Source of the DNA: Squalus acanthias
Lineage: Eukaryota
Length of the DNA: 64,000 nucleotides
Assembly: GCA_030390025.1 (NCBI GenBank)
Contig: CM059431.1
Coordinates: 153,390,001-153,454,000 of the forward strand
Direction: 5' to 3'
Of this stretch, positions 16,765-60,990 are shown piece after piece. A program made the translations under genes and the position numbers. Below the pieces are notes generated by a model that was not told where the DNA came from, ran no database searches, and was given only the letters and a program-made list of their open reading frames with translations. Position 1 is the first letter of the stretch; the number at the start of each line of letters is the position of its first letter.

Positions 16765-16770
16765 AATAAA
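16765..16770 (+). terminator. Candidate LTR polyadenylation signal
   Basis: AATAAA, conserved as TTTATT on the + strand near 45343 in the long solo LTR. Confidence 0.6.
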
Positions 16771-28060: not shown

Positions 28061-28075
28061 TGACGGAGAGAATCT

Positions 28076-31900: not shown

Positions 31901-32529
31901 GTGGTCCCTGATCGTGAGACTCTCTCTTTAAAATGGGTCCCTAACGGGGACATTCTCTGCTTAAAAGTGGTCACTGAGAGAAAGACTCTCCCTTTATAAG
32001 TGATTACTGATAGAAAGACTCTATCTTTAAAATGGGTCCCCGAGGGTGAGACACACTTTAAAAGGGGTCCCTGAAAGAAAGACTCTCTCTTTAAAATGGG
32101 TCCCTGATGGTAAACTCCCTCTTTAAAAATGAACCCTGATGGTGAGACTCCCTCTTTAAAAGGTGTCCCTGATTGTGAGAATCTCTCTTTAAAAGGTGTC
32201 CCTCATAGGAAGATTCTCTTTAAAAGGTGTCTCTGATAGAAAGACTCCCTCTTTAAAAGGGGTCCCTGACGGTGAGAGTCCCTCTTTAAAATGGGTCCCT
32301 CTTGGTGAGACTCCCTCTTTAATAGGAGTCCCTGATGCTGAAACACCCTCTTTAAAAGGGTCCCTGATGGTGAGACTCTCTCTTTAAATGGGATCCCTTA
32401 TGGTGAGCCTCACTCTTTAAAAGGGGTCCCTGTTGGTAAGTCTCTCTTTAAAAAGGCGTCCATGATAGAATGACTCCCTCTTTAAAAGTGTCTCTGACGG
32501 TGAAACTCCCTCTTTAAAAGGGTTCCCTG
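28960..32529 (-). repeat. 33-bp satellite, minus orientation
   Basis: Same unit, reverse orientation. Confidence 0.95.
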
Positions 32530-35068: not shown

Positions 35069-38000
35069 GATGGTATGACTTTCTCTTATAAAGATGTCCC
35101 TGATGATGAGACACCCTCTTTAAAATGTGTCCCTGATGGTGAGACACACTCTTTAAAAGGGATCCCTGATGGTGAGACTCCCTCTTTTAAAGGGGTCCCT
35201 GATGGGGAGACTCCCTCTTTAAAAGTGGTCCCTGATGGAGAGTCTCTCTGTTTAAAAGGTTTCCCTGATGGAGACACTCCCTCTTTAAAAGTGGTCCCTG
35301 ATGGTGAAACTCTCTCTTTAAAAAGTGTTTCTAATATGGAGATTCTCTTTAAAAGTGGTCTTTGATAGAAAGACTCCCTCTTTAAAAGGGTTCCTTAATA
35401 GAAAGACTCTCTCTTTAAAATGGATCCCCGAGATGAGACTCCTTCTTTAAAAGGACCGCCTGACCGAAAGACTGCTTCTTTAAAAGTGTCTCTGATGGTG
35501 AAACCCTCTCTGTAAAAGTTGTCCCTGATTGTGATGCTCTCTCTTTAGAAGGAATCCCTGATATTGAGGCTCACTCTTTTAAAGTTATCGCTGATGGTGA
35601 GACTCACTCTTTAAAAGTGGTCGCTGATGGCGTGACACTCTGCTTAAAAGGGGTCCCTGATGGTGAGACTCCCTCTATAAAAGTGGTCCCTGATGGATAC
35701 ATTCCCTCTTTAAATACGGATCCCGCTGGAGAGACTCTCTCATTAAATGGATACCTTGACGGGAAACACCCTCTTTCAAGGTGTCCCTGATTGGGAGACA
35801 TCCTCTTTAAAAGGTTTCCCTGATGCAGACATTCCCACTTTAAAATGGGTCCCTGATGCTGAGACTCTCTCTTTAAAAGTGTCTCTGATAGTGACACTCT
35901 CTTTATAAAAGGGGTCCCTGATGGTGAGATTCGATATTTAAAAGGCATCCCTGATTGTGAGACTCACTCTTTAAAAGGAACCCTGATGGTCAGACTCACT
36001 CTTTAAATGGTGTCGCTGTTGGTAATATTCTCTTTTAAAGGGCCCCCTGACAGAAATACTCTCTCTTTAAAAGTATCTTTGAAGGTGAGACTCTCTCTTT
36101 AAAAGGGCTCCTTGATAGAAAGACTCCCTCTTCAAAATGGCTCCCGAAGGGCGAGACTCCCTCTTTAAAAGGGGTCCCTGATAGATAGACTCTCTATTTA
36201 AATGGGGTCCCTGATAGTGAGAATCCCTCATTAAATGGTGTCCCTGATAGTGAGACTAACTCTTTAAATGGGATCCTTGATGGTGAGACTCCCTCTTTAA
36301 AAAGTGTCGCTGATGGTGAGACTCTCTCTTTTAAAGATGTGCATAATAGGAAGGTTCTCTTTAAATGGGGTCCCTGATAAAAAGACTCCCTCTTTAACTG
36401 GGTCTCTGATGGTGAGTCTCTCTCTTTAAAAGGGTTTCCTGATGGTGAGACACCCTCTTTACAGTGGATCCCTATGTGTGAGAGACACTCTTTAAAAGGG
36501 GTCTCCGATGGTGAGACTCACTCTTTAAAAGGGGTCGCTGATGTAAAGATTCTGTTTGAAAGGGCTCCCTGATAGAAAGACTCCCACTTTAAAAGGATCT
36601 GTGAAGGTGAGATTCCCTCTTTAAAAGACTCCCTGATAGAAAGACTCCCTCTTCAAAATAGTTCCGGAGTTTGAAACTCACTTTTTAAAAGTGGACCCTG
36701 ATAGTCAGACTCCGTCTTTAAATGGGATCCCTGATGTTGAGACACCCTCTTTAACAGTGGTCCCTGATGGGTAGACTCCCTCTTTAAATTGGATCCCTGA
36801 TGATGAGATCCCCTCTTTAAAAGAGGTCCCTGATGGTAAGACTCCCTCTTTAATAGAACTCCCTGATGCTAAAACACAATCTTTAAAAGGTTCCCTGATG
36901 GTGACACTCGCTGTTTAAAAGGGATCACTGATGCTGAGACTCTCTATTTAAAATGAGTATTTGATGGGGAGACTCTCTCGTTAAAAGGGGTCCCTGATGG
37001 TAAGATACCCTAATTAAAAGGGATCCCTTATGGTGAGACTCCCTTTTTAAAAGGGGTCCTTGATAGAAAGATTTTCTCTTTAAAAGTAGTCCCTGATGTT
37101 GAGACTCTCTATCGGGGAGACTCTCTGTTTAAAAGTTGTCACTGATAGGAAGATTCCCTCTTCAAAAGTGGTTCCAGATAGAAAGACTCTCTCTTTAAAA
37201 TGGGTCCCTGATGGTGAGACATCCTCTTTAGAAGGGGACTCTGATGGTGAGACTCACTCTTTAAAAGGGCTCGAAGATAGAAAGACACCATCTTTCAAAT
37301 GGTCTCTGACGGTGAGTCTCTATCTTTAAAAGGTGTGCCTGATGTTGAGACAGCCTCTTTAAAAGGGGTCCCTGATGGTGAGACTCCATCTTTAATAGGA
37401 GTCCCTGATGCTGATACACCCAATTTAAAAGGGATCCCTGAGATTGCCTCTTTAAAAGGTGTCACTAATGGGGAAAATCTCTCTTTAAAAGGGGTCCCTA
37501 ATAGAAGACACCCTCTTTAAAAGGGATCCCTGATAGAAAGACTTTCCCTTTAAAATGGGTCCCCGAGGGTGAGACTCCATCTTTAAAAGGGGTCCCTGAT
37601 AGAAATAATCTCTCTTTAAAAGGTATCCCTGATGGTGATACTCCCTCTTTAAAAGGGGTCCCTGATAGTGAGACTGCCTCTTTGAAAGTGTTCCCTGATG
37701 GTGAGACTCCCTCTTTAAAAGGGTTCCCTGATGATGAGACTCCCTCTTTAAAAGGGGTCCCGAAGTGTGAGAATCTCTCTTTATAAGGCATCTCTGATGG
37801 TGAGACTCACTCTTTAAAAGGGGTCCCTGATGTTAAGACTCTCTTTAAAACGGCTCCCTGATAGAAAGATTACCTCTTTAAACGGGTCTCTGATGGTGAG
37901 AATCTCTCTTTTTAAAGGTCTCCCTGATAGATAGACTCCCTCTTTAAAAGTTATCCCTGATGATGAGACTCTCTGTTTGAAAGGGATCCCTGACGGTGAG

Positions 38001-41000
38001 TCTTCCTATTTAAAAGGGGCCCCTGTTGGAGAGAATCTCTCTTTAAAAGGTGTCCCTAAATGGAAGATTATCTTTAAAAGGTGTCCCTGATGCTGAAACA
38101 CCCTGTTTAAAATGGCTCCCTGATAGAAAGACTCCCTGTTTACAAGGGATCCCTCATGGTGAGTCTAAGACTTTTATAGGGCTCCATGGTGGCGAGACTC
38201 AGTCTTTAAATGGGCTCCCTGATAGAAAGACCCCCTATTTAAAAGGTAATCTGACGTTTAGACTCTCACTTTAAAAGTGATCCCTGATGGTGAGAGTCTC
38301 TTTAAAAGGGGTCCCTGACCGGGATTCTCCCTCTTTTAAACGGGCACCAGATGATGAGACTCTCTCTTTAAAAGGGGTCCCTAATGCAGAAACACCCTCT
38401 TTAAAAGGGGTCCCTGATCGGGAGACTACCAATTTAAAAGGTTTCCCTGATGGTGAGACTATCTCTTTAAAATGGGTCCCTGATGGAGACACACCCTCTT
38501 TAATAGGAGTCCCTGATGCTGAAACATCCTCTTTAAAAGGGGTCCCTAAAGGGGAGACTCTCTCTTTAAAAGGTGCCACTGATAGAAAGAAGCCTTCTTT
38601 AAAAGGTGTCTCTGAAAGAACGGCTCTCTCTTTGAAATGTGTCCACTTGGGTGAGACTCCCATTTTAATATGTGCCCTTGATAGAAAGACTCACTTTTAA
38701 AAGATGTCGCGGAAGGTGGGACTCCCTTTTTAAAAGGGGTTCTTGATGGCGTGACTCTCTGTTTGAAATGGTTCCTTGATGGTGAGACTCTCGCTTTAAA
38801 AGATTTCCCTGATGTTGAGACTGCCTATCTAAAAGGCGTCCCTGATGTTGAGACTCTCTCTTTAAAAGGTGTCCCTGATGGTGAGACTTTCTCTTTAAAA
38901 GGGGTCCCTGATGTTGAGACTCTCTCTTTAAAAGGCGTCCCAGATGGTGAGACTCTCTTTTTAATAGGAGTCCCTGATGGAGAGACTCCCTCTTTAGAAG
39001 GGGTCCCTGATGGTGAGACACCCTCTTTAATATAAATCGCTAATGCTGAAACACCATCTTTAAAAGGGGTCCCTAATGGTGAGAATCCCTCTTTAAACGG
39101 TGACCCTAATGGGGAGATACTCTCTTTATAAGGGGTCCCTGATTGAAAGTCTCCTTCTTTAAAAAGAGTCCCTGATGCTGAAACACCCTTGTTAAAAGGG
39201 GTCCCTGATGGTGAGCCACTTTAATAGCGGTCCCTAATGGGGAGACACTCTCTTTAAAAGGGGTCCCTAATGGTGAGACTCCCATTTAAAAGGGGTCCCT
39301 GCTAGTGAGACTCCCTCATTAAAAGTGGCCCCTAATGGTGAGACTACCTCTTTAGTAGGAGTCCCTGATGCTGAAACACACTATTTAAAACGGATCCCTG
39401 ATGGTGAGATTGCCTCTTTAAAAGGTGTCCATAATTGTGACACTCTCTCTTTAAAATTAATCCCGGATAGATAGACTCTCTCTAAAATGTGTGCCCGAGA
39501 GTGAGACTCCCTCTTTAAAAGACTTCTCTGATGGTGAGACCCCCTCTTTAAAAGGATCCCTGAAGGTGAGACTCTCTGTTTAAAACTGTCCCTGATGGAG
39601 AGACATCCTCATTAAAAGGTGTCCCTGATGTTGAGACTCTCTCTTTAAAAGGGGACCCTGATGGAGAGACTATCTCTTTAAAAGCGGTCCCTGATGCTGA
39701 AAATCCCTCTTTATAAGAAGTTCCTGATGAAGAGACTGCCTTTTTAAATGGGGTCCCTGGTGGAGAGACACTCTCTTTAAAAATGTGACTAATATTAAGA
39801 TTCTCTTGAAATGTGGTGCGTGTTAAAAATACTCTATCTTTAAAAGTGGCCCTTGAATGAAAGACACCCTCTTCAACAGGGTCTCAGATGGTGAGTGTCC
39901 CTCTTTAAAAGGGATTCCTGATGGTGAGACACCCTCTTTAAAAGGGGTCCCTAAGTGTCAGACTCTCTCTTTAAAAGTGATCTCTGATGGTGAGTTCAAG
40001 CTTCAAAACGGGTCCCTGATGGTAAGACTTCTTTAAAAGGGCTCCCTGAAAGAAAGACTCCCTCTATAAACGGGTCTCTGATGGGGTGACTGTCTCTATT
40101 TAAAGGGCTCCCTGATAGAAAGAGACCCTCTTTAAAAGGAATCCCTGATAGTGAGACTCTCTCTTTAAAATGTATATCTAATGGTGAGACAAACTCTTTT
40201 AAAGGGATCCCTGGTGGAGAAACCCTTTCATTAAAAGAGGTCCCTGATCCTGAAACACCCTCTTTAAAAGGGGTCTCTGATGGGGAGACTCTCTCTTTAA
40301 AATGGCTAACTGACAGAAAGATTCCCTTTTTAAAAGCGTTCCCTGATGGTGTGTCTCGCACTTTTATAGGGATCACTGGTGGTGAAACTCATTCTTTAAA
40401 AGGGCTACCTGATATAAAGACTCCCTCTTTAGAATGGTCTCTGACGGTGAGCCTCTCTCTTTAAAAGTGATCGCTAATTGTAAGACTCTCTCTTTAAAAT
40501 GTGTCCCTGGTGGAGAAGCTCTCTCATTAAAATGGGTCCCCGCCGTGGATACTCCCTCTTTTAAAAGTGCCCCTGATGGTGAGACTCTCTCTTTAAAATG
40601 TGTCTCTCATTGGAAGATTATCTTTAAAAGGGCTCCCTGATGGAAGGACTCCCTCTTTAAAAGTGTATCTGATGGTGAAACTCCCTCCATAGGAGGGCTC
40701 CCTGATCGTAAGACTCACTCATTAAAATGGAGCCCTGATGGTAAGACTCACTCTTTGAAAGGGCTCCCTGATAGACAGACTTACTCTTTAAACGGGTCTC
40801 TGACGGTGAGAAGTCCTTTAAACGTTTACACTGAGGGGGAGACTCCATCTTTAAATGGGGACCCTGATGTTGATTCTCCCTCTTTAATAGGAGTTCCTGA
40901 TGCTGAAACGCCCTCTTTAAAAGGGGTCCCTGCGGGAGAGACACCCACTTTAAAAGGGGTCCCTGATGGTGTGACTCCCTCTTTAAATAGGTTCCCATAT

Positions 41001-42568
41001 GGAGACACTCCCTCTTTAAAAGGGGTCGCTGATGCTGGGACTCCGTATTTAAAATGGATCCCTGATGGAGAGACACACCCTTTAAAATGTGTACCTGATA
41101 GAGACACTCCCTCTTTAAAAGGGCCCCTGATGGTGATACTCACTCTTTAAAAGATCACTCTCATTGGAAGATTAACTTTAAAAGGTCTCCCTGATAGAAA
41201 GACACACTCTTTAAAAGTGTCTCTGATGTTAAAACTCCCTCTTTAGGAGGGCTCCCTGATCGAAAGACTCCCTCTTTAAAAGGGAACCCTGATGGTGAAA
41301 CTCAGATTTTGAAACGGCTCCCTTAATGACCGACTCGCTCTTTAAACGGGTCTCTCCCTGTGAGACTCTCTTTAAAATATTTCCCTGATGGTGAGTCTCC
41401 CCTGTAAAAGGGGTCCCTGAAGGTGAAAAACCCAATTTAAAAGTGGTCCCTGATGTTGAGACTCTCTCTTTACAAGGTGTCCCTAATAGGAAGATTTTTT
41501 TTAAAATGGGTCCCTGATAGAAAGTCTCCCTCTTTAAAGCATTCCTTTAAAGAAAGGCATTCTCTTTAAAATGGGTTCTCTTTTGGTGAGACTATCTCTT
41601 TAAAATTGTTCCCTAATAGGAAGATTCTCTTTAAAAGAGGACCATGATAGAAATACTCCCTCTTCCAAAGGGGTCCATGATGGTGGGTCAATCTCATTAA
41701 AAGTGCTCAATGATGGGGAAAAACCCTCTTTAAAAGGTATCCTTGTTGGAGAGACTCTCTCATTAAAAGGGGTCCCTGACAGGGATGCTCCCTCTTTAAA
41801 AGGGGCCCCTAATGGGGAGATTCTCTCTTTTAAAGGGGATCATGTTGGAGTGACTCTCTCATTAAAAGTGGTTCGTGACAGGTAAGCTCCCTCTTTAACA
41901 GTGGCCCCTGATGTTAAGGCTCTCACTTTAAAAGTGGTCCCTGATGCTGATACAGCCTCTGTAGAATGGGTACTTGATGCTGAGACTCCCTCTTTAAAAG
42001 GGGTACTTGATGGTGAAACTATCTATTTAAAGATGTCCCTAATATGAAGATTCTCTTTAAAAGGGAGCCCTGCTGGACACCCTCTATAAAAGGGGTCCCT
42101 GATGGTGAGATTCCCTCTTTAAAACGGGTCCCAAATGGGGAGATTCTCTCTTTAAAAGGTGTCCCTGATAGAAAGACTCTCTCTTAAAAGGGGATCCTGA
42201 TGTTGAGACTCCCTTTTTTAAAGGGGTCCCTGATGGCGAGACTCTCTCTTTAAAAGGGGTCCCTCATGGGGAGACTCACTCTTTAAAATGGGTCCCTGAT
42301 GTTAAGACTCTCTTTAAAAGGACTCCCTGATAGAGAGACTCCCTCTTTAAGAGGATCTCTGATGGTGAGACTCCCTCTTTAAAGGGTCTCCCTAATAGAA
42401 AGACTCACTCTTTAACAGGGCTCCCTGATGGTGAGACTCCCTCTTTTAAAGGGTCTCTGATGGTGAGACTCCCTCTTTAAAAGGTCTCCCTGATAGAAAG
42501 ACTCCCTTTTTAAAAGTGGTCCCTGATGGCGAGACACTCTCTTTAAAAGTGATCCCTGATGGTGAGAC
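35069..42568 (-). repeat. 33-bp satellite, minus orientation
   Basis: Same unit, reverse orientation. Confidence 0.95.
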
Positions 42569-43702
42569 TGAAGGGTTAATTACTAGTCCTAGCCCCTTTA
42601 GGGCTTATCCGGAACAGGCGTATTTCTCAGACATTCACTTTCAACTAAAGTTTGAGTTAGCCGAATCGTAAAGGCGCTTAATTGTGTCTGAAGATCGGGA
42701 CTATCACTCCCGAAAGGAAAGGAACAACCTGAAAATGTTACCGTCCTCCAAATAGCACTTTTAATAAGTTTAGCTAGACTGTAACGTTCCGGATATTATG
42801 AGGATAAGGAAAAATCCCCCAGAATTCTACAACTTCTCACGAAAGTGTGTACAGAGATTGAATTTGCGAGTTTGATACAGAAGTCATATGTGAGTCAATA
42901 TAAAAAAATATATAGATAGATTAAATAACCGACATGTAATTTACAGTTGGTGTGTCAATCGCAACATTAACAGTTCCAAAAAATGAAAGATTTACAATCT
43001 TATTATCAGAGATCCTTATTCTCAAATCTTAACTTCGCTGCAGTTTTACTGTTCTTAAAGATTATTGAGGATATCCACCAAAATCAAATATAGTAACTTT
43101 GATCCCCGAGGTACAAATTCTTGTAGAATTATGGAGCCACCTCTGAAGCTGAGAATCGCTTTGCCCGTTAAAGCGTGTCTACTATCCCATTTGAGAGTTC
43201 AATATTTGCACACTTTTCCAGTGTTATTTCCTTTAAGCTTTTCTGCAGATGTAAGCTAATTATCTATATTCATTTTTCTGCAGACCCCTGCATTCCAAGT
43301 CTCCTCAGCTGGTAGTAATACAGAGTCGTGTCTCCTCTAGGTTTTCCAAGCTTACCATAAAAAACGGTGTAACATCAGGTGCCTTTCATTTGTTGTCATT
43401 TTTACTAAGACCTTCTGTTTGTGCCTCTTTACGAAGTGTAAATTAGAACACCTTGTACAGTGTTAAACTTTGTTTTGTTCCGAAAGGTTCATATTGTCGG
43501 GAGTCTTTAACCTTCGGCTTCAATCAGATTATTGATTCAGTGTCAACAACTATCTTATCTCTGTAGCCAGAATTATATCATAGCTTTAGATTGTTGAGGC
43601 TTCCAGATTTCCAAACCCAGTTTGCCATGTTTTAATACGGCCAGAATTCTTTCATACTATGGTGTGCTTTACTGAATAGGTTATATGGCTTATTCCTTCA
43701 CA
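42569..43702 (-). mobile_element. Solo LTR of foamy-like ERV, short subfamily (1134 bp), 4-bp TSD AGAC
   Basis: The + strand reads ggtg-AGAC|TGAAGGG ... TTCCTTCACA|AGAC-tccctc, with TG...CA ends. It is homologous to 15979-17117. Confidence 0.92.
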
Positions 43703-45004
43703 AGACTCCCTCTTTCAAAGTGTCTCTGAATGTGAGACTCCCTCTTAAAAAGGAATCCCTAATGGGTAGATTATCTCTTTAAAAGCGGTTCCTGATGGTG
43801 AGATTCTCTTTAAAAGGGGTCCCTGATGGGGCGTCCCTTTTTAAAAGGGGTCCCTGATCGTGAAACTTCCTCTTTAAAAGGGGGCCCTGATGGTGAGACT
43901 CATTATTTAAAATAGGTCCTTAATAGGAAGATTCTCTTTAAAAGGGGTCCCTGATAGAAAGACTCGCTCTTTCAAAGGGATCCAAGATGGTGACACTTCC
44001 TTTTTAAAAGTGCTCCCTGATGGGGAAAAACCCTCTTTAAAAGGGGTCCCTGGTGGAGATACTCTCATTAAAAGTGGTCCCCGACAGGGATACTCCCTCT
44101 TTAAAAGGGGCCCCTGATGTGCGAACATCTCTCTTTAAAGGGGGTCCCTGCTGGTGACAGATCCTCTTCAAAAGGGGTCCCGGTTGGTAAGACTCTCTCT
44201 TTAAAAGGGGCCCTGATGGAGCGACTATCTCTTTAAAAGCGGTCCCGGGTGGAGAGACATAATTTAAAAGGGTCCCTGCTGCTGAAGCTCCCCCCTTAAA
44301 AGTTGTCCTGATGGAGACACACCCTCTTTAAAAGGGGTCCCTGATGGAGATACTCCCTCTTTAAAAGGTGTCTCTAAAAGGAAGATATTCTTTAAAAGGG
44401 GGCCATGATAGAAAGACACCCTCTTTAAAAATGGTCTCTGATGGTGAGACTCCCTCTTTAAAAGGGGACCCTGGTGGAGAGACTCTCTTCTTAAAAGGGA
44501 GCCCTGAAGGGGATACTCCCTCTTTTAAAGCGTCCCCTGATGGAGAGAATATATCTTTAAAAGTGCTCCCTGATGCTGAAACACCCTCTTTAAAACGTTT
44601 CCCTGATGTTGAGACTCCCTCTTTAAAAGGGGTCCCTGTGTGTAAAAATTGTAAAAGGCTCCCTGACAGAAAGACTCCCTCTTTGAAAGTGTCTCTGATG
44701 GTGAGACTCCCCCTTTAAGATTGCTCCCTGCTTGAAAGACTACCTCTTTAAAAGGGATTCCTGATGTTGAGACACTCTCGTTAAAATGTATCTCAGATGG
44801 TAAGACTCAATCTTTAGAAGGGGTCCCAGATGCTGAAACTCCCTCTTTGAAAGGGGTCCCTGATGGGGGGACACCCACTTTAATAGTTGTCCCTGATGGA
44901 GACACTCAATTCTTTAAAAGCTGTCCCAGATGGAGAAACTCCACTTTAAAAGTTGTCTGTGATGTTGAGACACCCTCTTTAAAAGAGGTCCCTGATGGTG
45001 AGAC
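43703..45004 (-). repeat. 33-bp satellite, minus orientation
   Basis: Same unit, reverse orientation. Confidence 0.95.
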
Positions 45005-46777
45005 TGAAGGTATAATTACAAGTTCTAGCCCTTTCGGACTACCCCAGATCAGGCTTTTTCCCCATACGTTTACCTTCAACTAAAGTTTGCGGTAGCCGGA
45101 TCGCATAAGACGCTTAATTGAGCCTAATGGTCAGACTACCTCTCCCTAAAGGAAAGAAGCGGTCTAAAGATGTTACCATCCTCCAGATAGTACTTTTAAT
45201 AAGTTTAACTAGACTGTAACCTTTCGGATATTATAAGGGTCCGGAATACCCCCAGAATTTTGCAACTCCTTTGAGTGTACAGAATTTGAGTTCGCAAGAT
45301 GATACAGAAATACTCTTTGAGACTTTTCTAACAATATATAGATTTATTAACGAAAAGACATTTATATAACATTTATTATGCCAATCGCAACTTTAATCGT
45401 TCAAAATACAAATAGCTTACTTTATCTTATTCTCAGATTTGTATTCCCAAATCTTAACTTCGTTACATTTCCACACTTCTACTTATTCCTTAATCCAGAA
45501 TATCCACCAAAATCAAATAAGAGTACCTTGATCCCCGAGACTCAAAAGTTAAAATCTTACAGAGAATTTTCTGTTAAGTTGAGAAACGCTTGCCTTCTCA
45601 GCGACTTCTGACTTTTCTGTCTGAAAAGATCTATTTTTACATATTTTTTTGGGTGGTTTATCCTTTGAGAGTTTTGTGCTGATGTAAGTTTAATTGTATC
45701 AATCATTCTTTGCTGACTTTGTTCTATTCTTTATTGATATCTCTGTTGAATGCATTTTGACTTGTGTCCTGTTTAGGTGTTTCCAAAACCATCATAAAGA
45801 CAATAACAAAAAATGGTTTCGGTTTTATGCAATTCTTAGGAAGTCTTTCTATTGAATTTCTAAAATAACAACAGAAAACGCTGGAAAAACTCAGCAGGCC
45901 AGGCAACATCCGTGGAAAGAGAAACAGAGTTAACGTTTCAGGTCGAAACCCTTCGTCGGTTTCGACCTGAAACGTTAACTCTGCTTCTCTCTCCACGGAT
46001 GTTGCCTGGCCTGCTGAGTTTTTCCAGCGTTTTCTGTTGTTATTTCGGATTTTCAGCATCCGCAGTATTTTGCGATCGTATTGAATTTTTAATACTACTT
46101 CAAATGTTTTTTATCAGACGTTTTGACTTCGTGGCATTCCATGTTCAATAAAAGAACAATGTAATTGCTTGTTGCTTCCATTGAAGTAATATTTTCAAAG
46201 TCGTCTTTTTTGGGTACTTTTTACAACTTGTAAATTAAAAACACTTCTCTAGTATCATCATGCATTTCTAATTTGCTTCAATTGATTTTTACCTTGTGAC
46301 TCCACCTTTCAAGCTTAACGTTAGAACTATTTGTTCAGAAGGCATTTCTTTCACTTGATGTCATTTATTTAAAGCCTTCTGTAAGTATTATATTTACAAT
46401 ATGTTAATTGAAAATACTTTAACTAAAGTGTTCAATTGTTTTCTCGGTTTCTGAATTAGTTGCATATTTAATGATGTTTCCTTATTCTAAGTTTAACATA
46501 AATCTATTTTACGATAGGTATTTCTTACTTGATGTCATTTTTTCAAAAGCACTTTGTTTTTTTAATGTTCTGTGCACCTGTTCGACGTGTTAGATTATAA
46601 CACTTTACTTCGGTCATTCCTCTGTTTTGTCCAAAACTCTGGACATAGAGGAACCTCCCAATGGTTTGCTTCAATAGCGCATTGTCTTTGTCAATATCCC
46701 ATTCCCATATCAAAGCTTGTGTTTACGGCTTTGTGTTAGTATCGTACATTTTTCTGAATCCTGGATATTCCTTCACA
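45005..46777 (-). mobile_element. Solo LTR of foamy-like ERV, long-U3 subfamily, 4-bp TSD AGAC
   Basis: The + strand reads ggtg-AGAC|TGAAGGT ... TTCCTTCACA|AGAC-tctttc. R/U5 is homologous to the short LTRs and U3 to 735-1977. It contains a nested 216-bp insertion. Confidence 0.92.
45863..46078. mobile_element. Short Penelope-like terminal fragment forming an 88-bp-arm hairpin
   Basis: Arms 45863-45950 and 45958-46045 with loop CTTCGTC. It is absent from the homologous LTR at about 1185 and flanked by TATTGAATTT(C/T)TA on both sides. The minus strand has a degenerate hammerhead-like core, CCGACGAAGGGTTTCGACCTGAAACGTT. Confidence 0.75.
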
Positions 46778-49700
46778 AGACTCTTTCTTTAAAAGCGGTC
46801 AATGTTGGAGTGACTATCTCTTTAATAGCGGTCCCTGATGGAGAGATTCCCTCTCTAAATGTCTCCCTAATAGAAATATTCTGTTTAAAAGGGGTCCCTG
46901 ATAGAGAGACACACTCTTTAAAGGGGTCCCTGATGGTGAGACTCTCTCTTTAAAAGGGATTCCTAATGGGAAGATTCTCTCTTTTAAAGGGTCCCCTGAT
47001 GGTGAGACGCCCTCTTTAAAATGAGAACCTGACGTTGAGACTCGCTTTAAATGGGGTCTCTGTTGGTGAAACTCCCTCTTTACATGAGTCCCCGATGTTG
47101 AGACTTTCTCTTTAAAAGGTTTCCCTTATCGGAAGATGTGTTTAAAATGGGTCCCTGATAGAGAGACAACCTCTTTAAAAGGGGTCCCTGTTGGTGCTAC
47201 TCCCTCTTTAAAAGGGATCCCTAAAGGGGAGATTCTCTTTTAAAAGGGGTCCCTGATGTTGAGACTCCTGCTTTAAAAGGGGTTGGTGAGACGCCCTCTT
47301 TAAAAGGGGTCACTAACGCAGACACGCCACCTTCAAAAGTTATCCCTTATGGAGCGACTCCCTCTTTAAAAGGGGTCCCTGATGGTAAGAATCTCTCTTT
47401 AAAGATGTCCCTGATGATGAGACATCCTCTTCAAAAGGGGTCTCTGATGGTGAGATCCTCTCTCTAATAAGGGGCCCATGGTGGAGAGACACTCTCATTA
47501 AAAGGGGTCCCTGAAAGGGATAATCCCTGTTAAAAGGGGTCCCTGATGTTGAGACTCTCTCTTTAAAAGTGTTCCCTGCTGCTAAACACCCTCTTTAAAA
47601 GGGGTCCCTGATGGTGAGACGCCCTCATTAAAAGTTGACCTGTCTGTGAGACGCTCTTTAAAAGGGGTCTCTGATGTTGAAACTCCCTGTTTAAAATGGG
47701 TGGCTGATGTTGAGGCTCTCTCTTTAAAAGGGATCCCAGATGGTGAGTCTCCCTCTTTAAAAGGGGCCACTGATGTTGACACTCCACCTTTAAAAGTTTC
47801 CCTGATGGAGAGACTCCCTCTTTAAAAGGGATCCCTGATTGTAAGACTCTCTCTTTAAAAGTTGTCCCGAATAGGAAGATTTTCATTAAAAGGGGTCCCT
47901 GAAAGAAAGAATCAATCTTTAAAAGTGGTCCTTCATGGAACGACTCTTTCTTTAAAATTGGTTCCCGTGTGTTAGACTCCCTCTTTAAAAGATGCACTGA
48001 TGATGATACATCCTCTTTAAAAGGGGCCCTGATGGTGAGATTCTCTCTTTAAAAGGGGTCCCTGGTGGAGAGACTCTCTCATTAAAAGGGGTCCCTGACA
48101 GGGATACTCCCTCTTTAAAAGGGGTCCCTGATGGTGAGACTCTCTCTTTAATAGGGTTCCCTGCTGCTAAACACCCTCTTGAAACGGGGTTCTGGATGGT
48201 GAGATTCCATTTTTAAAGAGTGGTCCGTGATGGGTAGACATCCACTTTAAAAGGGTTCCCTAATGGCGAAAATCACTCTTTCAAAGTTGTCCCTGATTTA
48301 AAGACGCCCTCTTTAATACTATTCCCTGCTGCTGAAACACCTTTTTAATTGGGTCCCTGTATGTGAGCCTCTTTAAAATGGGTCCCTAATCGGGAGGCTC
48401 TCTCTTTAAAAATGTTAACTGATTGAAATACTCTCTTTTTAAAAGGTGTCCCTGATGGTGAGACTCCCTTTTTAAAAGGGGTCCCTGATGATCAGACTCC
48501 CTCTTTAATGGGAATCCCTAATGCTGAAACTCTCTCTTTAAAGGTGTTCCCTGATGGTGAAACTCCCTTTTCAAAAGGGGCCCCTGTTGCTGAAACTTCC
48601 TCTTTAAAAGTGGTCCCTGCTTGCAAGATTATCTCTTTAAATGGGGTCCCTGTTGCTGAAACTTCTTCTTTAAAAGGGGTCCCTGATCGCAAGATTCTCT
48701 CTTTAAATGGGGTCCCTGATGGTGAAACTTCCTCTTTAAAAGGGGTCCCTGATCGCGAGATTCTCTCTTTAAAAGGGGTCCCTGATGGAGGCACACCCTC
48801 TTTAAAATGTGTCCCTGATTGTGAGACTCTCACTTTAAAAGGTATCCCTAATAGGAAGATTCTCTTTAAAATGGGTCCCTGATGGTGAGACTCTCTTTAA
48901 CAGGGGTCACTGAAGGGGAGACTCCATCTTTAAAAGGGATCCATGATGGTGAGACACTAATTTTAAAAGGGGTCCCTGATGGTGAGACTTCCTCTTTGAA
49001 ATGGGTCCCTGGTGGAGAGACTCCCTCATTAAAAGGGGCCCCTGCCAGGTATACTCCCTCATTAACAGAGGACACTGATGGTGAGACTCTCTCTGTAATA
49101 CGGGTCCCTGATGCCGAAACACCCTCTTTAAAAGTAGTCCATGATGGCGAGACTCGCTCTTTAACAGGAGTCACTGATGGGGAGAGTCCATCTTTAAAAG
49201 GGGTCCCTGATGGTGAGACTACCTCTTTAAAAGGGATCCCTAATGGAGAGATTGTCTATTTAAAAGGGTCCCTGATGGTAAAACTCCCTCTTTAAATGGG
49301 GTCCTTTATGGTGAGACACCCTATTTAAAAGGGGTCCCTGATGGAGGGAGTATCTCTTTAAAAGTGATCCGTGATGATGAATCCCCCTTGAAAAGTTGAC
49401 CCTAATAGGAAGATTATCTTTAAAAAGGGTCCCTGATAGAATTACACCCCATTTAAAAGTGGTCCCTAATGCGGAGATTCTTTATTTAAAAGGGGTCCCT
49501 GATATTGAGACACCCTCTTTATAGGGTGTCCCTGAGTGTGCGACACTCTCTTTAAAAGTGATCTCAGAAGTTAATACTCACTCTTTAAAAGGGAATCCTG
49601 ATGGTGAGACACACTCTTTAAAAGGTCTCCCTGATAGAAAGACTCCCTCTTTAAAAGGGTCTCGGACGGTGAGAATCTCTCTTTAAAGAGGGCCCCTGCT

Positions 49701-50049
49701 CGTGAAACACCCTACAAAAATGCGTCTCTGATGGGGTGAATCTCTATTTAAAAGAGTTCCCTGATAACAAGGTGTCCCTGATGGTGATACTCCCTCTTTA
49801 AAAGGGGTCCCTGATGGAGACACACCCTCTTTAAAATGTGTCCCTGATGGTGACACTTTCTTTAAAAGTGTCCCTAATAGGAATAACCTTTTTACGATCG
49901 GTCCTTGATAGAAATACTTTCTCTTTAAAAGTGGTCGCTGAAGCTGAAACAACCTCTTTAAAAATGGTCCCTGATGGTGAGACTACCTCTTTAAAAAGGA
50001 CCCCTGCACGTGAAAATTCCTCTTTCAAAGGGGTCCCTGATGGTGAGAC
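46778..50049 (-). repeat. 33-bp satellite, minus orientation
   Basis: Same unit. The array ends at the LTR junction at 50049/50050. Confidence 0.95.
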
Positions 50050-50835
50050 TGAAATAATTATTACCAGTCCTAGCCCTTTTCTGGCTACCCCGGATCAGGC
50101 ATATTCCCCAGAAGTTCACCTTTAACTGAAGTTAGAGTTAGCTGAATCCTAATGACGCTTAATTTCTCTCCCGAAAGGAACGGAACGACCTGAAGATGTT
50201 ACCGTGCTCCAGATAGCACTTTTAATAAGTTTAGCTAGACTGTAACCTTCCGGTTATTATGAGGGTTCGGAAAACTCCTCCAGAATTCAGCAACTCATCA
50301 CCAAAGAGTGTACAGAGATTAATTATGCGAGTTTGATACAGAGGTACTATTTGAGACAATTCTAAAAAAACATAGATGTATTAAAGATTCGACATGTATT
50401 TACAGTTGTTGATTCAATCGTAACTTTAACAGTTCAAAATACAAAAAAACGTACAATTCTTATCAGAGATCCTTATTCTCAAATCTGAACTTCGTTACAT
50501 TTTTACATTTCTTACTTAGTCTTAGTCCAGAATATCCACCAAAATCAAATAAAAGGAACTTTGATCCCCGAGACTTAACGAGTTGAAAATTTTTACAGAG
50601 CTTCCCTCTGAAGTCTGAGAATCGCTTTGCCCCTTCCAGCGAATTCTGTCTTCCTATTTTTAAATACAATCTTTTATGCTCTTTCTCAGTGGTATATCCT
50701 TTGAAGTTTTCTGCTGATGTAAGCTAATTATTTCTAGTCATTCTCCTGTTGACCCCTGCTTTTCTTACAATTAGTTCAGCTTGTAGTTTGTAGAATAATG
50801 CCTGCTCTGTAAGTGTTCGAATCTTATCATAACAT
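50050..50835 (-). mobile_element. LTR (U5, R, part of U3), probable 3' LTR of the provirus at 57159-62743
   Basis: The + strand reads ggtg-AGAC|TGAAAT... It is colinear with 42569-43360, on the same strand as gag-pol, and cut off by CR1 sequence at about 50836. Confidence 0.85.
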
Positions 50836-51394
50836 TCCATTGGCATTCTTAATCACTTGCTGCAGCTGCATACTAACCTTTTGAGTTTCGTGCACCAGGA
50901 CCCCCAGATCCCTTTGTAGTTCAGTACTTTCAAGTTTCTTGCCATCAAGATAATAACTTTCTCTACTATTTTTCCTGCCAAAGTGCATAACCTCACACTT
51001 TCCAGTATTGTATTACATCTGCCAAATCTCTACCCACTTACTTAGCCTGTCTATGTCCCCTTGCAGATATTTTATGTCCTCCTCACTCACTACTTTCCCT
51101 CCGATCTTAGTATCAACTGCAAACTTTGATATGTTGCACTCGGTCACCTCCTCCAAATCGTTAATATAGATTGTAAAGAGTTGGGGACCCAACACTGACC
51201 CCTGCGGAACACCACTAGTTACTGATTGCCAGTCTGAGAATGAGCAATTTATCCCAACTCTCTGCCTTCTGTTAAATAGCCAATCCTCTATCCATGCCAG
51301 AATATTACCCCCAATCCCGTAATTTTTTATCTTAAGCAATAAACTTTTGTGTGGCACCTTGTCAAATGCCTTTTGGAAGTCTAAATACACCACA

Positions 51395-52442
51395 TGGCAG
51401 GCAGTAACAAGTGGGGTACCACAGGGATCTGTCCTGGGTCCCCAGCTGTTCACAATTTACATTAATGACCTGGATCAGGGAGTCGGATGCAGCATTTCCA
51501 AATTTGCAGACGACACTAAACTAGGAGGGGGGGTGGGCTCAGAGGAGGAGACCAGGAAGCTCCAGAGCGATTTGGACAGACTGGGTGATTGGGCGGATAA
51601 ATGGCAGATGCACTATAATGTGGACAAGTGCGAAGTTATCCACCTTGGGTGCAGGAACGGGAGGGCAAATTATTATTTAAATGGCAATAAAGTGGGAGAG
51701 GGGGAAGTACAGAGAGACCTGGGTGTTCTTGTACACCAGTCACTGAAGGCGAGCATGCAGGTGCAACAGGCGATCAAGAAGGCAAATGGTATGCTGGCCT
51801 TCATAGCAAAAGGGTTGGAATACAGGAACAGGGATACCTTGCTGCAGCTGTACAGGGCACTGGTGAGACCACACCTCGAGTACTGTGTACAGTTTTGGTC
51901 GCCTCATCTGAGGAAAGATGTTCTTGCCATGGAGGGGGTGCAGCGGCGATTCACCAGGCTGATACCAGGAATGGCGGGATTGACCTATGAGGAGAGACTA
52001 TGTAGTTTAGGGATGTACACACTGGAGTTTAGAAGATTGAGAGGGGACCTCATAGAAGTGTATAAAATTCTGACAGGTCGAGACAGACTAGATGCAGAAG
52101 GAATGTTTCCCTTGGTGGGTGAGAACAGAACTAGAGGACATAATTTAAGGATAAGGGCTAAACCATTTAGGACAGAAATGAGGGGGAATTTCTTCACTCA
52201 GAGGGTGGTGAACCTGTGGAACTCATTGCCACAGAGGGCAGTGTACGCCAGCTCATTAAATATATTTAAGAGGGAATTAGATATATTTCTACAGGCAAAA
52301 GGGGTTAAGGGTTACGGAGAGAAGGCGGGGACGGGATACTGAATTGGAGGATCAGCCATGATCTCATTAAATGGCGGAGCAGGCTCGAAGGGCCGGATGG
52401 CCTACTCCTGCTCCTATCTTCTATGTATCTATGTATCTATGT
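51395..52442 (+). mobile_element. CR1 LINE 3' fragment nested in the minus-strand CR1
   Basis: Uninterrupted RT C-terminal frame to 52342, a 3'UTR and a (CTATGTAT)n tail. Host sequence TACACCACAT|CCACTGC rejoins across it with ACAT on both sides. Confidence 0.93.
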
Positions 52443-53995
52443 ACATCCACTGCTTCACCCTTATCCACCCTGTATGTTACTTCCTCAAAGAACTCCAGCA
52501 AATTTGTCAAACATGACTTCCCGTTCATAAAACCATGGTGACTTTGTCTTATTAAATTATGATTATCCAAATGTCCCGTTACTGTCTCCTTAATAATAGA
52601 CTCCAAAATTTTACCTACCACAGATGTTAAGCTAACCGGTCTATAGTTTCCAGCGATCTGTCTACTGCCTTTTTTAAATAAGGGTCTTACATTAGCAGTT
52701 TTCCAGTCTGCCGTGATCTTTGCTAATCCAGGGAGTTTTGGAAAATGATTTCCAATGAATCCACAGTCCCTACCGCCACTTCCCTCAAGACCCTAGGATG
52801 TTAACCATTAGGTCCAGGTGTTTTATCCGCCTTGAGTCCCATTATTTTACCGAGTACCACTTCATTTGTGATTTTGATCGTGTTTAGCTCCTCCCCCCAT
52901 ATAGCCCCTTTTTGTCCAGTGTTGGGATATTCTTAGTGTCCTCTACTGTAAAGACTGATACAAAATATTGATTCAGTGTTTTTGCCATCTCCATATTTCC
53001 GACCATTAATTTCCCGGTCTCATCCTCTAAGGGACCAACATTTACTTTAGCCACCCTTTTTCTTTTTATATAACTATAAAAACTCTTACTATCTGTTTTT
53101 ATATTTTTTGCTAATTTACTTTAATAATCTATCTTTCCTTTGTTAATCAATCTTTTTTTATTTTTTGCTGTCTTTTAAAGTTTTCCCAATCCTCTATCCT
53201 CCCACTAGATTTGCCTACCTTAATAGCCCTTGATTTTGGTCCAATACTAATTTTAATTTCTTTACTTAGCCACGGATGACTGTCTTTTCTTTTACACCCT
53301 TTTCTTCATAGTGGAATATATTTTTTTGGAAGTTGTGAAATAACTCCTTAAATGTACACCACTGATCATGTATCGTCTTACCCTTTAATTTATTTTCCCA
53401 ATCCACTCTACTCAATTCCGCTCGCATACCTTCATAGTCTCCTTTATTCAAGCTTAGCACGCTTGTTTGAGATCCAACCTTCTCACCCTCTAATTGAATA
53501 TGGAATTCAACCATGTTATGGTCACTCATTCCAAGGGGATCCTTTACTACCATTTTTAATTAATCCTGTCTCGTTACACAGGACCAGTTCTAAGGTTGCT
53601 TGCCCACTGGTCGGTTCAATAACATACTGCTCAAGAAACCCATCCCTAATACACTCAATCAACTCATCCTCAAGGCAGCCCTGCCCAATCTGATTTGTCC
53701 AATTACATGATAGTTAAAATCCACCATAATTATAGATGTTCCCTTATTACAAGCCTCAACTATTTCCTGATTGATACTCCGTCCAACAGAGGTGCAACTG
53801 TTCGGAGGCCTATAGTCTACCCCCACTAGTGTTTTTTTCCCCCTTATTATTCCTTATCTCCACCCAAAATGTTTCATTATCCTGATCTTTTAACCCATAT
53901 CATGTCTCTGTATTACGGTGATTACTTCCTTTATTAACATAGCCACCCCACCTCCCATTCCTTCAGTGCCTGTCCTTCCTGATTGTTAAATAACC

Positions 53996-54172
53996 TTGAG
54001 AAGTCGCACAACACCAGGTTATAGTCCAACAGTTTTATTTGAAATCACAAGCTTGAAGGAGCAGTAACTCCGAAAGCTTGTGATTTCAAATAAATCTGTT
54101 GGACTATAACCTGGTGTTGTGCGACTTCTCAATTTTGTCCACCCCAGTCCAACACCGGCATCTCCGCATCAT
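53996..54172. mobile_element. Short Penelope-like pseudo-LTR hairpin, same family as 62744-64000
   Basis: Inverted arms TTGAGAAGTCGCACAACACCAGG ... CCTGGTGTTGTGCGACTTCTCAA. The tail is identical to 63535-63575 and ends at the ORF ATG. It is flanked by TGTTA(A/T)ATAACCT. Confidence 0.85.
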
Positions 54173-55002
54173 GTTATATAACCTGGTATGTTTAATTCCG
54201 AGGCATTGTCACCCTGCAGCCATGTTTCTGTAATGCCCACAAATCATACCCATAAGTAGTTATTTGTGCCATTAACTCGTCTATTTTGTTATGAATGCTA
54301 CGTGCATTCAGATAGAGAACTTTCAAATATGTTTTTTGACACTTATGTTCCTGCTTTTGCCCTTTTTATTACTTTACCTTTTACTCCATACCTTCTGCCC
54401 CTTCCTGACACACTCTGGTTTTTAATTTCCCCACTGCTACCTAAGTCTATGACCTTCTCTATTTTCATTTTTATTATTTGCTCTCCAGGAACCTCCCCCC
54501 CACCCCCCACTAGATAGTTTAAGGCCCTCTCTACAGCCCTAGTTATCTGATCCGCCAGCTCTCCAGTCCCAGCACTGGCCAAGTGAAGCCCGTCCCAATG
54601 GAACAGCACCCTCCAGCCCCAACACTGGTGCCAGTGTCCTAGGAAGCAAAACCCATTTCTACCACACCAGACTTTATCCACTCATTTAACTCTCTAATTT
54701 TATTTGTCCTAGCCAAATTCGCTCGTGGCTCAGGTAATAATCCAGAGATTATTACCCTTGAGGTTCTGTTTTTTTTTTAATTTGACCCCTAGCTGCTCAT
54801 ACCCCTTTAACAGAACCGGCTTCCTTGTCCTATCGATGTCGTTTGTACCAACATGGACCACGACAACTGGATCCACCCCCTCCCAGTGCAAGTGTCTTTC
54901 CAGCCCAGATGAGTTGTCCTTAACCCTGCCACCGGGCAGGCAACACAGCCTAAGGGACTCTAACACTCGGCTGCAGATAACTCTATCTATTCCCCTAATA
55001 AT

Positions 55003-56098
55003 TGGAGGAAGGGACCAAGTGTAACATATCAAAATTTGCAGATGATACAAAGATGGAAGGGAAAGTAGTGAGTGAGGAGGACATAAAAAACCTGCAAGGG
55101 GACATAGAAAGGCTAAGTAAGTGGGCAGAGATTTGGCAGATGGAATACAACACTGGAAAGTGTGAGGTGATGCACTTTGGCAGGAAAAATCCTAGAGCAA
55201 TTTATTATCTTAATGGCAAGAAACTGGAGAGTACTGAAGTGCAAAGCGATCTGGGGGTCCTGGTGCACGAAACTCAAAAGGTTAGTATGCAGGTGCAGCA
55301 AGTGATTAAGAAGGCAAATGGAATGTTGGCTTTCATTGCTAGGGGGATAGAATATAAAAATAGGGAGGTATTGCTTCAGTTGTACAAGGTATTGATGAGA
55401 CCGCACCTGGAATACTGCATACAGTTTTGGTGTCCTTACTTAAGGAAATACATCCTTACTCTCGAGGCAGTGCAAAAAATGTTCACTCGGTTAATCCCGG
55501 GGATGAGGGGGTGGTCATATGAGGAGAGGTTGTGTAGATTGGGACTCTACTCATTGGAGTTCAGAAGAATGAGAGGCGATCTTATTGAAACATATAAGAT
55601 TGTGAAGGGGTTGGATCGGGTGGATGCGGGGAGGATGTTCCCGATGACGGGTGAAACTAGAACTAGGGGACATAGTCTTAGAATAAGGGGCTGCTCTTTT
55701 AAAACTGAGATGAGGAGGAACTACTTCACTCAGAGGGTGGTAGGTCCATGGAATATGCTGCCACAAAAAGCTGTAGAAGCTACATCATTAAATAAATTTA
55801 AAACAGAAATAGAAAGTTTCCTAGAAGTAAAGGGCATTAAGGGTTACGGGGAGCGGGCAGGAATTTGGACATGAGTCTTTGTTCGGATCGGTCATGGCCC
55901 TGTGGGTAATGGAGCGGGCCCAGGGACCGTGTAGCCTGATTCTGCTCCTATTTCGTGTGTGCAATTCTGTTAGATGCAGGAGATGGTTCTGTGATAGTAG
56001 ATTGGCGGTTAGGATCAGATCAGCAATGATCTTATTGAATGGCGGAGCAGGCTCGAGGGGCCGATTGGCCTACTCCTGCTCCTATTTCTTATGTTCTT
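55003..56098 (+). mobile_element. CR1 LINE 3' fragment nested in ORF1 of the minus-strand CR1
   Basis: Open RT C-terminal frame to 55874, a 3'UTR and tail TTCTTATGTTCTT. ATAAT occurs on both sides (54998-55002, 56099-56103). Confidence 0.92.
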
Positions 56099-57489
56099 AT
56101 AATACTATCCCCTACCACTACAACATTTCTATTTACTCCCCCCTCTTTAATGGCCCCCCTTTCCACGGTGCTGTGGCCAGGTTGCTTATCCTCCCTGCAG
56201 TCCCTGCTCCTGTCCCCACAGGGAGTAAGAACCTCGAACCTGTTGGACTACAGCAAGGGCTGAGGCTCCTCCAACACTACCTCCTGGATCCCCGTACCTG
56301 CCTCACACGTCGTCACACCGTCCTGTCCCTGACCATGGGCTACATCTGAATTAATTAACTTCATAGGTGTGACCACCTCCTGAAACACAGAGTCCAGGTA
56401 CTTCTCCCCATCACTGATGTGTCGCAGTGTCTGAAGCTCAGACTCCAGCTCATCAACACGGAGCTGGAGTTCCTGTAGCAGCAGACACTTATCACAAATG
56501 TAATCACCGTGAGCCTCAATGGGGTCCACCGGCTCCCACATCTCGCAACAGTAAGACATCACCTGCTCCATCCTATGTAATTAATTAATTTGTTTTATTG
56601 TTAGATTTGGACACTCTCTGCCCGATTATAGATGGTAGTACCCCTCTAATTAATTGGATTTAAATTAAATCAATCCCTCTAAATTACACCAGTTAAATTG
56701 TTTACCAACAGTCACTCTGCACCAGAAAAGCTTTATTAACTACAACCCACAGAGTTAAAGTTTGAAAAGAGCAACCTACACCCCACTCACCCGAACTTAC
56801 AATTACCCAAACTCAGCACTCTCTGCTGACTCGCACTCAGTGCTTGCTCGCACTAGCACTGGTCTTTTTATACTGTGTGTTTGTTTACAGCCAAATGAGT
56901 CACCCCTGCTGGTTGATTAGAAAACTGTTTTCCACTGCCTGCTGTGCCAATGTACATCTACAGCAGTGTAAACTTGTTTTACTCTTCTTAAATCAACATA
57001 ATCCCAAATATTTAACTGTTACCCTTCACTTAAACTGCTTAAGTACTCTTATCAAGACTGATTTAAAGAGAACTAACAATTAAAGAACTCTCACACTTAC
57101 CCAAACTCAGCACTCTCTGCTGACTCGCACTCAGTGCTTGCTCGCACTAGCACTGGTCACACACTGTTCCTTCGATCCGGTGTGTGTACTGATTCTTGTT
57201 TTCATAAAGGTCTTGCCAGGCACTCAGTTGATTCCATCTTTCTCCACGATGTCTTCCTTCTTCGTTGAAGCAACTCTTTAATCTTTCCTTGTTTCAGTTG
57301 TTGCTTTTCGCAAATCCAAATCCTGAGGCTTTGCCAAGCATCATGTGGAGGAGTCGGCGACTCCGTCTGACTGAGTTTCATCAGTAGTTCGATCGCATCC
57401 ATTTCCTTTGTCATGCTCCAAGCTGGGTCTTGAAAGACAGTGTACGACTGCACCTTGTATTATTCCTCCATTTCGGTATCCCGCAGGAC

Positions 57490-60400: not shown

Positions 60401-60990
60401 ATTAAGACACCTTATTCTGTTAGTTCTTTGAGCGTTGTTAGAAGATCTATTTTTCCTTTGTGGTCCTGAATAGGCACTGTTTTTTAGGTTTGTTCCAGCC
60501 AGCATCAAGTGGGTGTGGTTTGATGTTTATCTTTCCACGTTGATTTGGATGTCGTTGTAGATAAGGGTAGAATCTATTAATGAGTTGCTCGAGGTCTTTG
60601 CCTCCCCCCTCTAGGCAAATTCGATTAAGCTGTGTCCGAACATGTTTTTCCCTGTTATCCTGGTCTGCGGATGCTTCTACAGATCTGGTTGAAATTTTAA
60701 GGTAATGTTTCATGTCTGGTTGTCCTATAATGAGGGAACCGGACAATTGTGGCATCGGTCGGACATCGAGGGTCACCGTGATTCCATATATGGTAATAGG
60801 TATTTTGTAACAATTAATAATTTTGGTTTGGTCTTGTGTGAATCCCCCTAATGGTATTTTACAAATTGGGCTTCCCAAATCTGTGCTGTTAGATTTTATA
60901 ATTGCAGGATCTATTACAGTGTAATCAGCTCCCGTATCAAACAGGGCCTTCACTTGTGTGTTTGTGGTTAAGTTTGCCAGGGCATAGGGG
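57490..60990 (-). pseudogene. pol: Foamy-like pol (PR-RT-RNase H-IN)
   Basis: PR: ALFDTGADYTVI. RT: KPDGSWRLLVDY...ANGFWSHPI...QYCWARLSQEFQNSP...YVDDISLSHD. RNase H: YCDGS...IPFGHKTAQYDE...MDSDY...GNSVAD. IN: AHCG...YWWPSM...CEPC, FIDFIGPLPPSLGY, LHSDQGRAF, WKPLVGEWVQE...SLRPKWKKP, TVSIDNLK. Confidence 0.93.

Follow-up and report, generated by a model that had tools for sequence, protein, structure and literature searches.

Several retroelements insert site-specifically, among them R1/R2 in ribosomal DNA (rDNA), Ty3 at Pol III start sites and the centromere-targeting chromoviruses. Such elements place most of their copies at the target, for which they encode a dedicated endonuclease or a targeting domain. 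We analyzed a 64,000-nucleotide stretch of Squalus acanthias DNA (GenBank assembly GCA_030390025.1, contig CM059431.1, C7:153390001-153454000; hereafter the window), in which long terminal repeats (LTRs) of a foamy-like endogenous retrovirus (ERV) interrupt a 33-bp satellite repeatedly at the same place. Foamy-like endogenous retroviruses (FLERVs) have been described before, in sharks, bony fish and amphibians, according to the cited parts of earlier reports (PMC5512871; PMC5210030, PMC4422223). Our literature search, a narrow one and no proof of absence, found no report of foamy-like ERVs inserted in satellites. A sequence-only reading of the window had proposed that the family integrates at one fixed position of the satellite unit and uses it as a safe-harbour landing pad. 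Our analysis points to a different explanation. Several independent insertions share one satellite spot, and they are probably the outcome of a generic, weak integrase preference for which the satellite is a repeated target, rather than of homing.

LTR copies in the window were located by within-window BLAST. Three of them hit one forward satellite array at 35068-50049 (+), whose consensus, CCCTGATGGTGAGACTCCCTCTTTAAAAGGGGT, was derived from 45 in-phase units. LTR1 is a solo LTR of subfamily A (1134 bp) at 42569-43702 (-), with the target-site duplication (TSD) AGAC at 42565-42568 and 43703-43706. LTR2 is a solo LTR of subfamily B (1773 bp) at 45005-46777 (-), with AGAC at 45001-45004 and 46778-46781. 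LTR3, of subfamily C, covers 50050-50832 (-) and represents the outer, U5-side portion of a 3' LTR whose provirus lies on the minus strand, with AGAC at 50046-50049; it is interrupted at ~50832 by pieces of a long interspersed nuclear element (LINE) and is seen by one junction only. Direct reading confirmed the junctions from which the sequence-only reading had started: at 42569, 45005 and 50050 the LTR opens with TG directly after GGTGAGAC, and TTCACA/AGAC (the slash marks the LTR boundary) stands at 43702/43703 for LTR1 and at 46777/46778 for LTR2. Both junctions were verified for LTR1 and LTR2 only. In these two, deleting the LTR together with one AGAC regenerates a normal 33-bp unit, and this exact regeneration ruled out the candidate in which the satellite forms part of the element.

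Three further LTRs bring the total to six LTR events within 72 kb, counting the window and the next 8 kb. LTR4, at 15980-17117 (+), is the 3' LTR of a 5'-truncated provirus and has the outer junction CCCTGATG/TG at 17117/17118. The segment before it (15200-15979) is an internal fragment with the polypurine-tract (PPT) side, part of which matches 57159-57604. LTR5, a truncated B-type LTR at ~739-1977 (-), sits in reverse-oriented satellite with the junction CACA/AGAATCTTACCATCAGGG in register CTCC. Its orientation relative to the satellite is the opposite one, and the junction, CACA/AGAATCTTACC, is three bases off the mirrored AGAC site. LTR6 lies just past the window end in register CCCT. The LTR copies listed by the sequence-only reading were real, but LTR5 had been missed and the element had been read backwards: the primer-binding site (PBS) adjoins the TGAAGG end and the polypurine tract adjoins the TTCACA end, which places the sense strand on the opposite strand. 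The sequence-only reading was right that LTR1 and LTR2 diverge at their U3 ends.

We evaluated how the family is distributed across the 3.7-Gb genome. The exact 15-nt LTR end occurred 4,716 times, compared with 6 occurrences of a control pattern, and 17 of these ends (0.36%) were found adjoining satellite. All 57 fetched relatives of LTR1 and LTR2 lay in non-satellite DNA, and the relatives of LTR1, 85-89% identical to it, were spread over many chromosomes. A 4-bp TSD with at most one mismatch flanked 38 of the 57 dispersed copies (26 perfectly), as had been supposed for an element of this kind, and the TSD sequences varied widely. Nine copies had a TSD with three or four mismatches; eight of the nine border PBS- or PPT-side internal sequence and are therefore LTRs of longer elements. 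For ten copies the second end was not found within the fetched stretch. The sequence-only reading had itself named this outcome, with most copies outside the satellite and their TSDs varied, as one that would refute site-specific targeting.

Identical junctions could also arise if a single ancestral insertion had been copied with the array and its copies had diverged afterwards. Duplication of the array with embedded LTRs is real. The segment 41007-47329 of the window recurs 86 kb upstream with 93-95% identity and a 2.2-kb deletion, and a segmental duplication of at least ~9.7 kb relates window 41007-50762 to C7:153344983-153352515, 86-88 kb upstream, at 93-98% identity, covering the satellite and LTR1-LTR3. 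A 98% duplicate of LTR1 (L002) lies 86 kb upstream, and the upstream duplicate holds a 97% twin of LTR3 at C7:153351803. Junctions of the LTR4, L066, L070 and LTR5 types also recur, four to six times each, with flank variants in common. The LTR4-type junction was found in four other copies elsewhere; the three of them that were compared have flank variants in common and fall in one clade with LTR4. LTR4 and its copies are therefore one event that was duplicated later. The sequence-only reading had fitted LTR4 to the AGAC site by a later loss of 7 nt, which is at best conjectural for this provirus, truncated on its other side. The LTR5-type junction was found in four further copies elsewhere, of which the one compared, L075, is 94% identical to LTR5.

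LTR1, LTR2 and LTR3, by contrast, are each nearer to dispersed copies of a different subfamily than to one another. Their mutual identity is 74-76%, whereas LTR1 is 85-89% identical to dispersed subfamily A copies, LTR2 (first 858 bases) 86-92% identical to 39 dispersed subfamily B copies, and LTR3 85-89% identical to dispersed subfamily C copies. In a tree of 72 rows and 600 shared bases, LTR1 fell inside the A clade, LTR2 was nested within the B radiation and LTR3 was basal on the A side; the AGAC-site pair L061/L062, from unplaced contigs, formed a lineage of its own. Constraining the AGAC-site copies to one clade cost 288 log-likelihood units and was rejected by the approximately unbiased test (p-AU 3.6e-5). 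The 198-nt flanks of LTR1, LTR2 and LTR3 were no more alike than random in-register satellite (null fraction 0.13-0.89). The separate subfamilies, the clade test and the flanks therefore show that LTR1, LTR2 and LTR3 are independent insertions and that the AGAC copies are not one insertion copied with the array, on which point the sequence-only reading was right. A single copied insertion is refuted for these three LTRs and true for the near-identical duplicates; as an account of the shared position it is highly improbable.

Two other features of these LTRs were observed. The terminal branches of in-satellite LTRs were ~3-5x longer than those of dispersed copies of the same subfamily (LTR1 ~0.10 compared with 0.01-0.03), reflecting either greater age or faster mutation in the array. 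LTR2 holds a later 183-bp palindromic insertion at 45863-46045 that resembles a miniature inverted-repeat transposable element, with arms 94% complementary. It is missing from LTR5 and from most subfamily B copies, a similar piece is present in L043, and the deletion in the upstream duplicate that contains L002 stops at the edge of this insertion.

To take a census of positions within the satellite unit, we ran four pattern searches that paired the conserved LTR end with a satellite anchor 0-30 positions away, allowing either orientation. The searches returned 93 matches, 37 of them with satellite flanks. Eighteen of the satellite-flanked places were examined as 700-base stretches, and copies were grouped into events by flank variants and LTR lineage. 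In the same orientation, four events used AGAC (LTR1 with L002, LTR2, LTR3, and L061/62), one used CCCTGATG/ (LTR4 and four duplicates) and one used CCCTGATGAT(G/C)/. In the opposite orientation, there was one event at the AGAC site (four duplicates), three at GTGA (L070, L071 and L072, with LTR lineages ~73% alike or of a different subfamily), one at CTCC (the LTR5 type) and one at ATGG. Left out of the count were L063-65, a U3-side AGAC group that is possibly the other end of L061/62; L074, possibly the other end of the LTR5 type; and L078 together with the remaining matches with non-satellite flanks. The in-satellite total is ~13 events in seven registers (AGAC, GTGA, CTCC, GATG, GGTG, ATGG and CCCT) and both orientations. 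The statistics cover 12 of these events (five at AGAC, three at GTGA and one at each of four registers), LTR6 at CCCT having been found afterwards.

Under a uniform model over 33 registers, five of 12 events at one register had P = 6.4e-4, and the clustering of the 12 events as a whole had P = 5.5e-5. The AGAC hot spot is real, yet there is no single fixed position. The clustering that the sequence-only reading expected against a uniform distribution was borne out, but the fixed position it proposed has to give way to insertions at GTGA, from three LTR lineages, and at five other registers.

Several observations speak for site-specific homing to one satellite position. Four to five independent events used AGAC, four of them in one orientation; AGAC recurs in 2/7 out-of-window events (P ~0.02 against 1/33, by simple arithmetic); and the window holds 5 LTR events in its 34 kb of satellite. 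The use of seven registers and both orientations argues against it, as do the 17 of 4,716 ends found beside satellite and the 57 of 57 fetched relatives that lie elsewhere with varied TSDs. We also found no targeting domain in the integrase besides the usual Integrase_H2C2, rve and SH3_11, in a decayed, broken copy in which a small module could be missed. Finally, the favored registers can be predicted from non-satellite sites alone, as described below. Homing, with the satellite as a safe-harbour landing pad, is thus highly improbable.

We built a symmetrised weight matrix from 37 distinct insertion sites outside the satellite. In this matrix T stands at -2, mirrored by A on the other side (39/74 symmetrised), C/G is preferred at -3 and -4, and T is scarce at the first TSD base and A at the last; together these features give a weak palindrome of roughly S-S-T-N [R-N-N-Y] N-A-S-S. 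When the satellite consensus was scored with this matrix, AGAC ranked first (3.62 bits) and GTGA second (2.58 bits) among the 33 registers, so that the matrix's top two registers are the two most used in the satellite. Clustering of the 12 events was unexceptional under the matrix model (P = 0.15), and the log2 likelihood was -42.7 for the matrix model compared with -60.5 for the uniform model, favoring the matrix by 17.8 bits. Among 500 control matrices made from pseudo-sites at the same loci, 16 placed AGAC first and 6 placed AGAC and GTGA both at the top. The pattern matches the target consensus of prototype foamy virus (PFV), given as (-3)KWK\VYRBMWM(+6), and the features described for viruses with 4-bp TSDs in the cited part of that study (PMC4422553).

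These observations are most probably explained by the following sequence of events. The family integrated throughout the genome with 4-bp duplications, and its integrase probably had the usual weak palindromic preference of retroviruses with a 4-bp stagger, shaped like the PFV consensus. Because a tandem satellite presents the same 33 candidate positions thousands of times, a weak preference would suffice to concentrate independent insertions. Such a preference probably funneled them to the best-fitting positions, GGTG[AGAC]TCCC first and GATG[GTGA]GACT second, after which segmental duplication of the array multiplied some of the insertions. By analogy with PFV, we infer that the preference resides in the contact between integrase and DNA.

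Several points weigh against this explanation. The matrix comes from 37 sites only, and in bootstraps AGAC took first place in 58.5% and ranked third or better in 93%. A symmetric matrix predicts random orientation, whereas the ratio of same to opposite orientation was 4:1 at AGAC and 0:3 at GTGA (Fisher p ~0.07, not significant). The well-scored registers CCTG, GTCC and CCCT have one event in all (LTR6), and four events fall at poorly scored registers. Most in-satellite events are known from one junction only, and event counts hinge on the grouping of duplicates by flank and LTR lineage. In addition, the window has 5 events in 34 kb of satellite compared with ~1.3 exact LTR ends per Mb genome-wide. 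This density suggests some regional excess that generic integrase preference does not reach.

The density bears on another explanation, in which a regional bias at the level of chromatin, through more frequent arrival of pre-integration complexes at this heterochromatic satellite or better retention of insertions there, acts on top of the sequence preference, with the register possibly shaped by phased nucleosomes. The 17 of 4,716 exact LTR ends, ~0.36%, fall in a satellite that makes up at most ~0.12% of the genome, and 17 is an undercount because the search anchor survives in just 41% of satellite units. The six LTR events per 72 kb at this locus point the same way. Nucleosome phasing is compatible with the unit length, since 5 x 33 = 165 bp and Tandem Repeats Finder (TRF) reports higher-order satellite periods of 161-164 bp. 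PFV Gag mutants without chromatin tethering integrate massively into centromeres, as described in the cited parts of two studies (PMC6282019, PMC12125541). The satellite share itself, however, is bounded only loosely, at 0.18-4.6 Mb, because arrays vary greatly in homogeneity. Segmental duplication also inflates copy counts, and at the event level (7 raw) the excess over an upper-bound expectation of ~6 is small. LTR elements are expected to accumulate in low-recombination repeats without targeting, and PFV base preferences are reportedly largely independent of chromatin in the cited part of that work (PMC4422553). We regard such a bias as unlikely. Less likely again is its more specific form, in which a shark-type foamy-like lineage was biased regionally to this satellite domain, subterminal or centromere-like, and would thus parallel in nature the PFV Gag tethering mutants, with integrase preference picking the register. 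If that were true, the density of six LTR events per 72 kb would be due to delivery as well as to retention.

The evidence for generic integrase preference applies to a family whose identity was established from the window and from dispersed copies. The sequence-only reading had called the element foamy-like, and the protein matches agree. Broken open reading frames (ORFs) at 57542-61343 (-) matched Pfam Spuma_A9PTase, RVT_1, RNase_H, Integrase_H2C2, rve and SH3_11, with Spuma_A9PTase at 22.4 bits, barely over its cut-off of 21. Against PDB, the reverse transcriptase (RT) fragment matched the foamy protease-reverse transcriptase (PR-RT) at E 5e-38, compared with 3e-13 for Ty3 and near 1e-7 for human immunodeficiency virus (HIV). 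The integrase fragment matched foamy integrases only (PFV, 3e-26), and the best match of the RNase H was also foamy (3e-20). In dispersed copies with internal sequence, the TGAAGG LTR end abuts the reverse complement of TGGCGCCCAACGTG. A PBS of this type was present in L008, L020, L023, L028 and L032, with one or two differences in some. TGGCGCCCAACGTG is identical to the human foamy virus PBS over the first 14 nt of the latter, as given in the cited passage of PMC3386198, and the PBS of the dispersed copies is of the tRNA-Lys1,2 type. A PBS search within the 64-kb window gave nothing above chance level. Pol similarity, the Lys1,2-type PBS and the 4-bp TSDs support the classification of the element as a foamy-like ERV. 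The family is large and old, with at least three LTR subfamilies, in a genome of the cartilaginous-fish type.

Internally deleted, non-autonomous derivatives make up the seemingly full-length subfamily A elements: L008/L013 (C9:71014748-71019719), L021/L023 (C15), L020, L022 and L028. In these, a ~270-bp leader is fused directly to the RNase H/integrase part, and gag, protease, RT and env are absent.

In the window, the provirus to which LTR3 belongs as the 3' LTR extends on the minus strand to at least 62745. Its decayed internal region, at 57159-62745 (-), was delimited by matches to dispersed copies and annotated from ORFs, Pfam and PDB matches; it has several frame breaks. On the minus strand it comprises the leader (62475-62745), gag remnants (61926-62375), the Gag C-end with the protease (60447-61343), RT (59381-60411), RNase H (58543-59184) and integrase (57542-58619). 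The env side is replaced or interrupted by nested CR1-like LINE fragments, which lie between LTR3 and the integrase end at 50833-56100 (approximate limits, strand unassigned). These fragments have RVT_1 matches in ORFs of both strands and are similar to a LINE at 32536-35067. We searched for the 5' LTR of the provirus throughout the window, in the 40 best genome matches to LTR3 and in the next 8 kb without finding it; the last of these stretches contained the unrelated LTR6 instead. Before the protease, the first ~60 residues of the frame at 60447-61343 (-) are rich in Gly, Arg and Gln and contain a GGY...R stretch, which may resemble the chromatin-binding sequence of foamy Gag.

The 33-bp satellite totals 33.9 kb in the window, and its units are degenerate, with ~67-74% matches (TRF). 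Its orientation switches several times. Besides the forward array hit by LTR1, LTR2 and LTR3, TRF placed forward blocks at 12407-15199 and 28959-32535 and reverse blocks at 1-669, 1982-6608 and 17118-28060. All orientation switches in or beside the window fall at a transposon or LTR (6600-6610, 15199-17118 and 28060-28959, and position 2452 of L079), which suggests inversions or recombination between those inserted elements. Far more homogeneous arrays of the same satellite lie at C5:167.35-170.96 Mb, where an exact 18-mer is kept in nearly every 31-33-bp unit, compared with ~1 unit in 25 in the arrays of the window.

Harbinger-type copies (Pfam DDE_Tnp_4 and Myb_DNA-bind_5) also break the satellite, at 6609-12406, 13715-14514 and 28061-28958. 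The first of these blocks consists of an inverted pair of copies, ~92% alike. A 54-bp repeat forms short arrays (11551-11666 and 14385-14517) at the edges of Harbinger copies, and an 87-bp tandem repeat in three copies (10792-11054, 97% matches) lies within a long proline/glycine-rich ORF of the Harbinger-associated block.

The locus reveals a foamy-like ERV family of very high abundance, with several LTR subfamilies, deleted derivatives and a PFV-like target preference. It also provides a clean natural case in which a weak generic integrase preference can pass for site-specific homing once its target is repeated in tandem. When junctions and TSDs in a satellite are identical, this by itself proves neither targeting nor a single insertion.

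Compared with the FLERVs described in the cited parts of earlier reports (PMC5512871; PMC5210030, PMC4422223), the family shares a Pol nearest to foamy PR-RT and integrase, a Lys-type PBS, 4-bp TSDs, long LTRs (1.1-1.8 kb) and multiple decayed copies with nested transposons. It differs in its very high LTR copy number (at least 4,716 exact ends), its three or more subfamilies and its abundant internally deleted derivatives; the likeness in Pol is drawn from matches to solved structures. With the PFV preference, as far as the cited part of that study describes it (PMC4422553), it shares two-fold symmetry, the 4-bp stagger, T at -2 mirrored by A, and the disfavoring of T as the first TSD base and of A as the last. 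In our small sample of 37 sites, C/G at -3/-4 is stronger than for PFV and a central YR step is not evident, AGAC having a central GA step. If confirmed on thousands of sites, the resemblance would suggest that the shape of the preference is ancient in the lineage.

A further parallel is the K258R mutant of HIV-1 integrase in alpha-satellite, where, in the cited part of the report (PMC8933506), a couple of spots in the monomer are preferred and other positions are used too, as here. That case is an experimental mutant lentivirus with strong redirection to centromeres, while the present insertions are germline fossils of a foamy-like virus and show no redirection. With R1/R2, Ty3 and the chromoviruses, the family shares the repeated use of one position in a repeated target, but the satellite contains fewer than 1% of its copies, and the decayed copy yielded no targeting domain.

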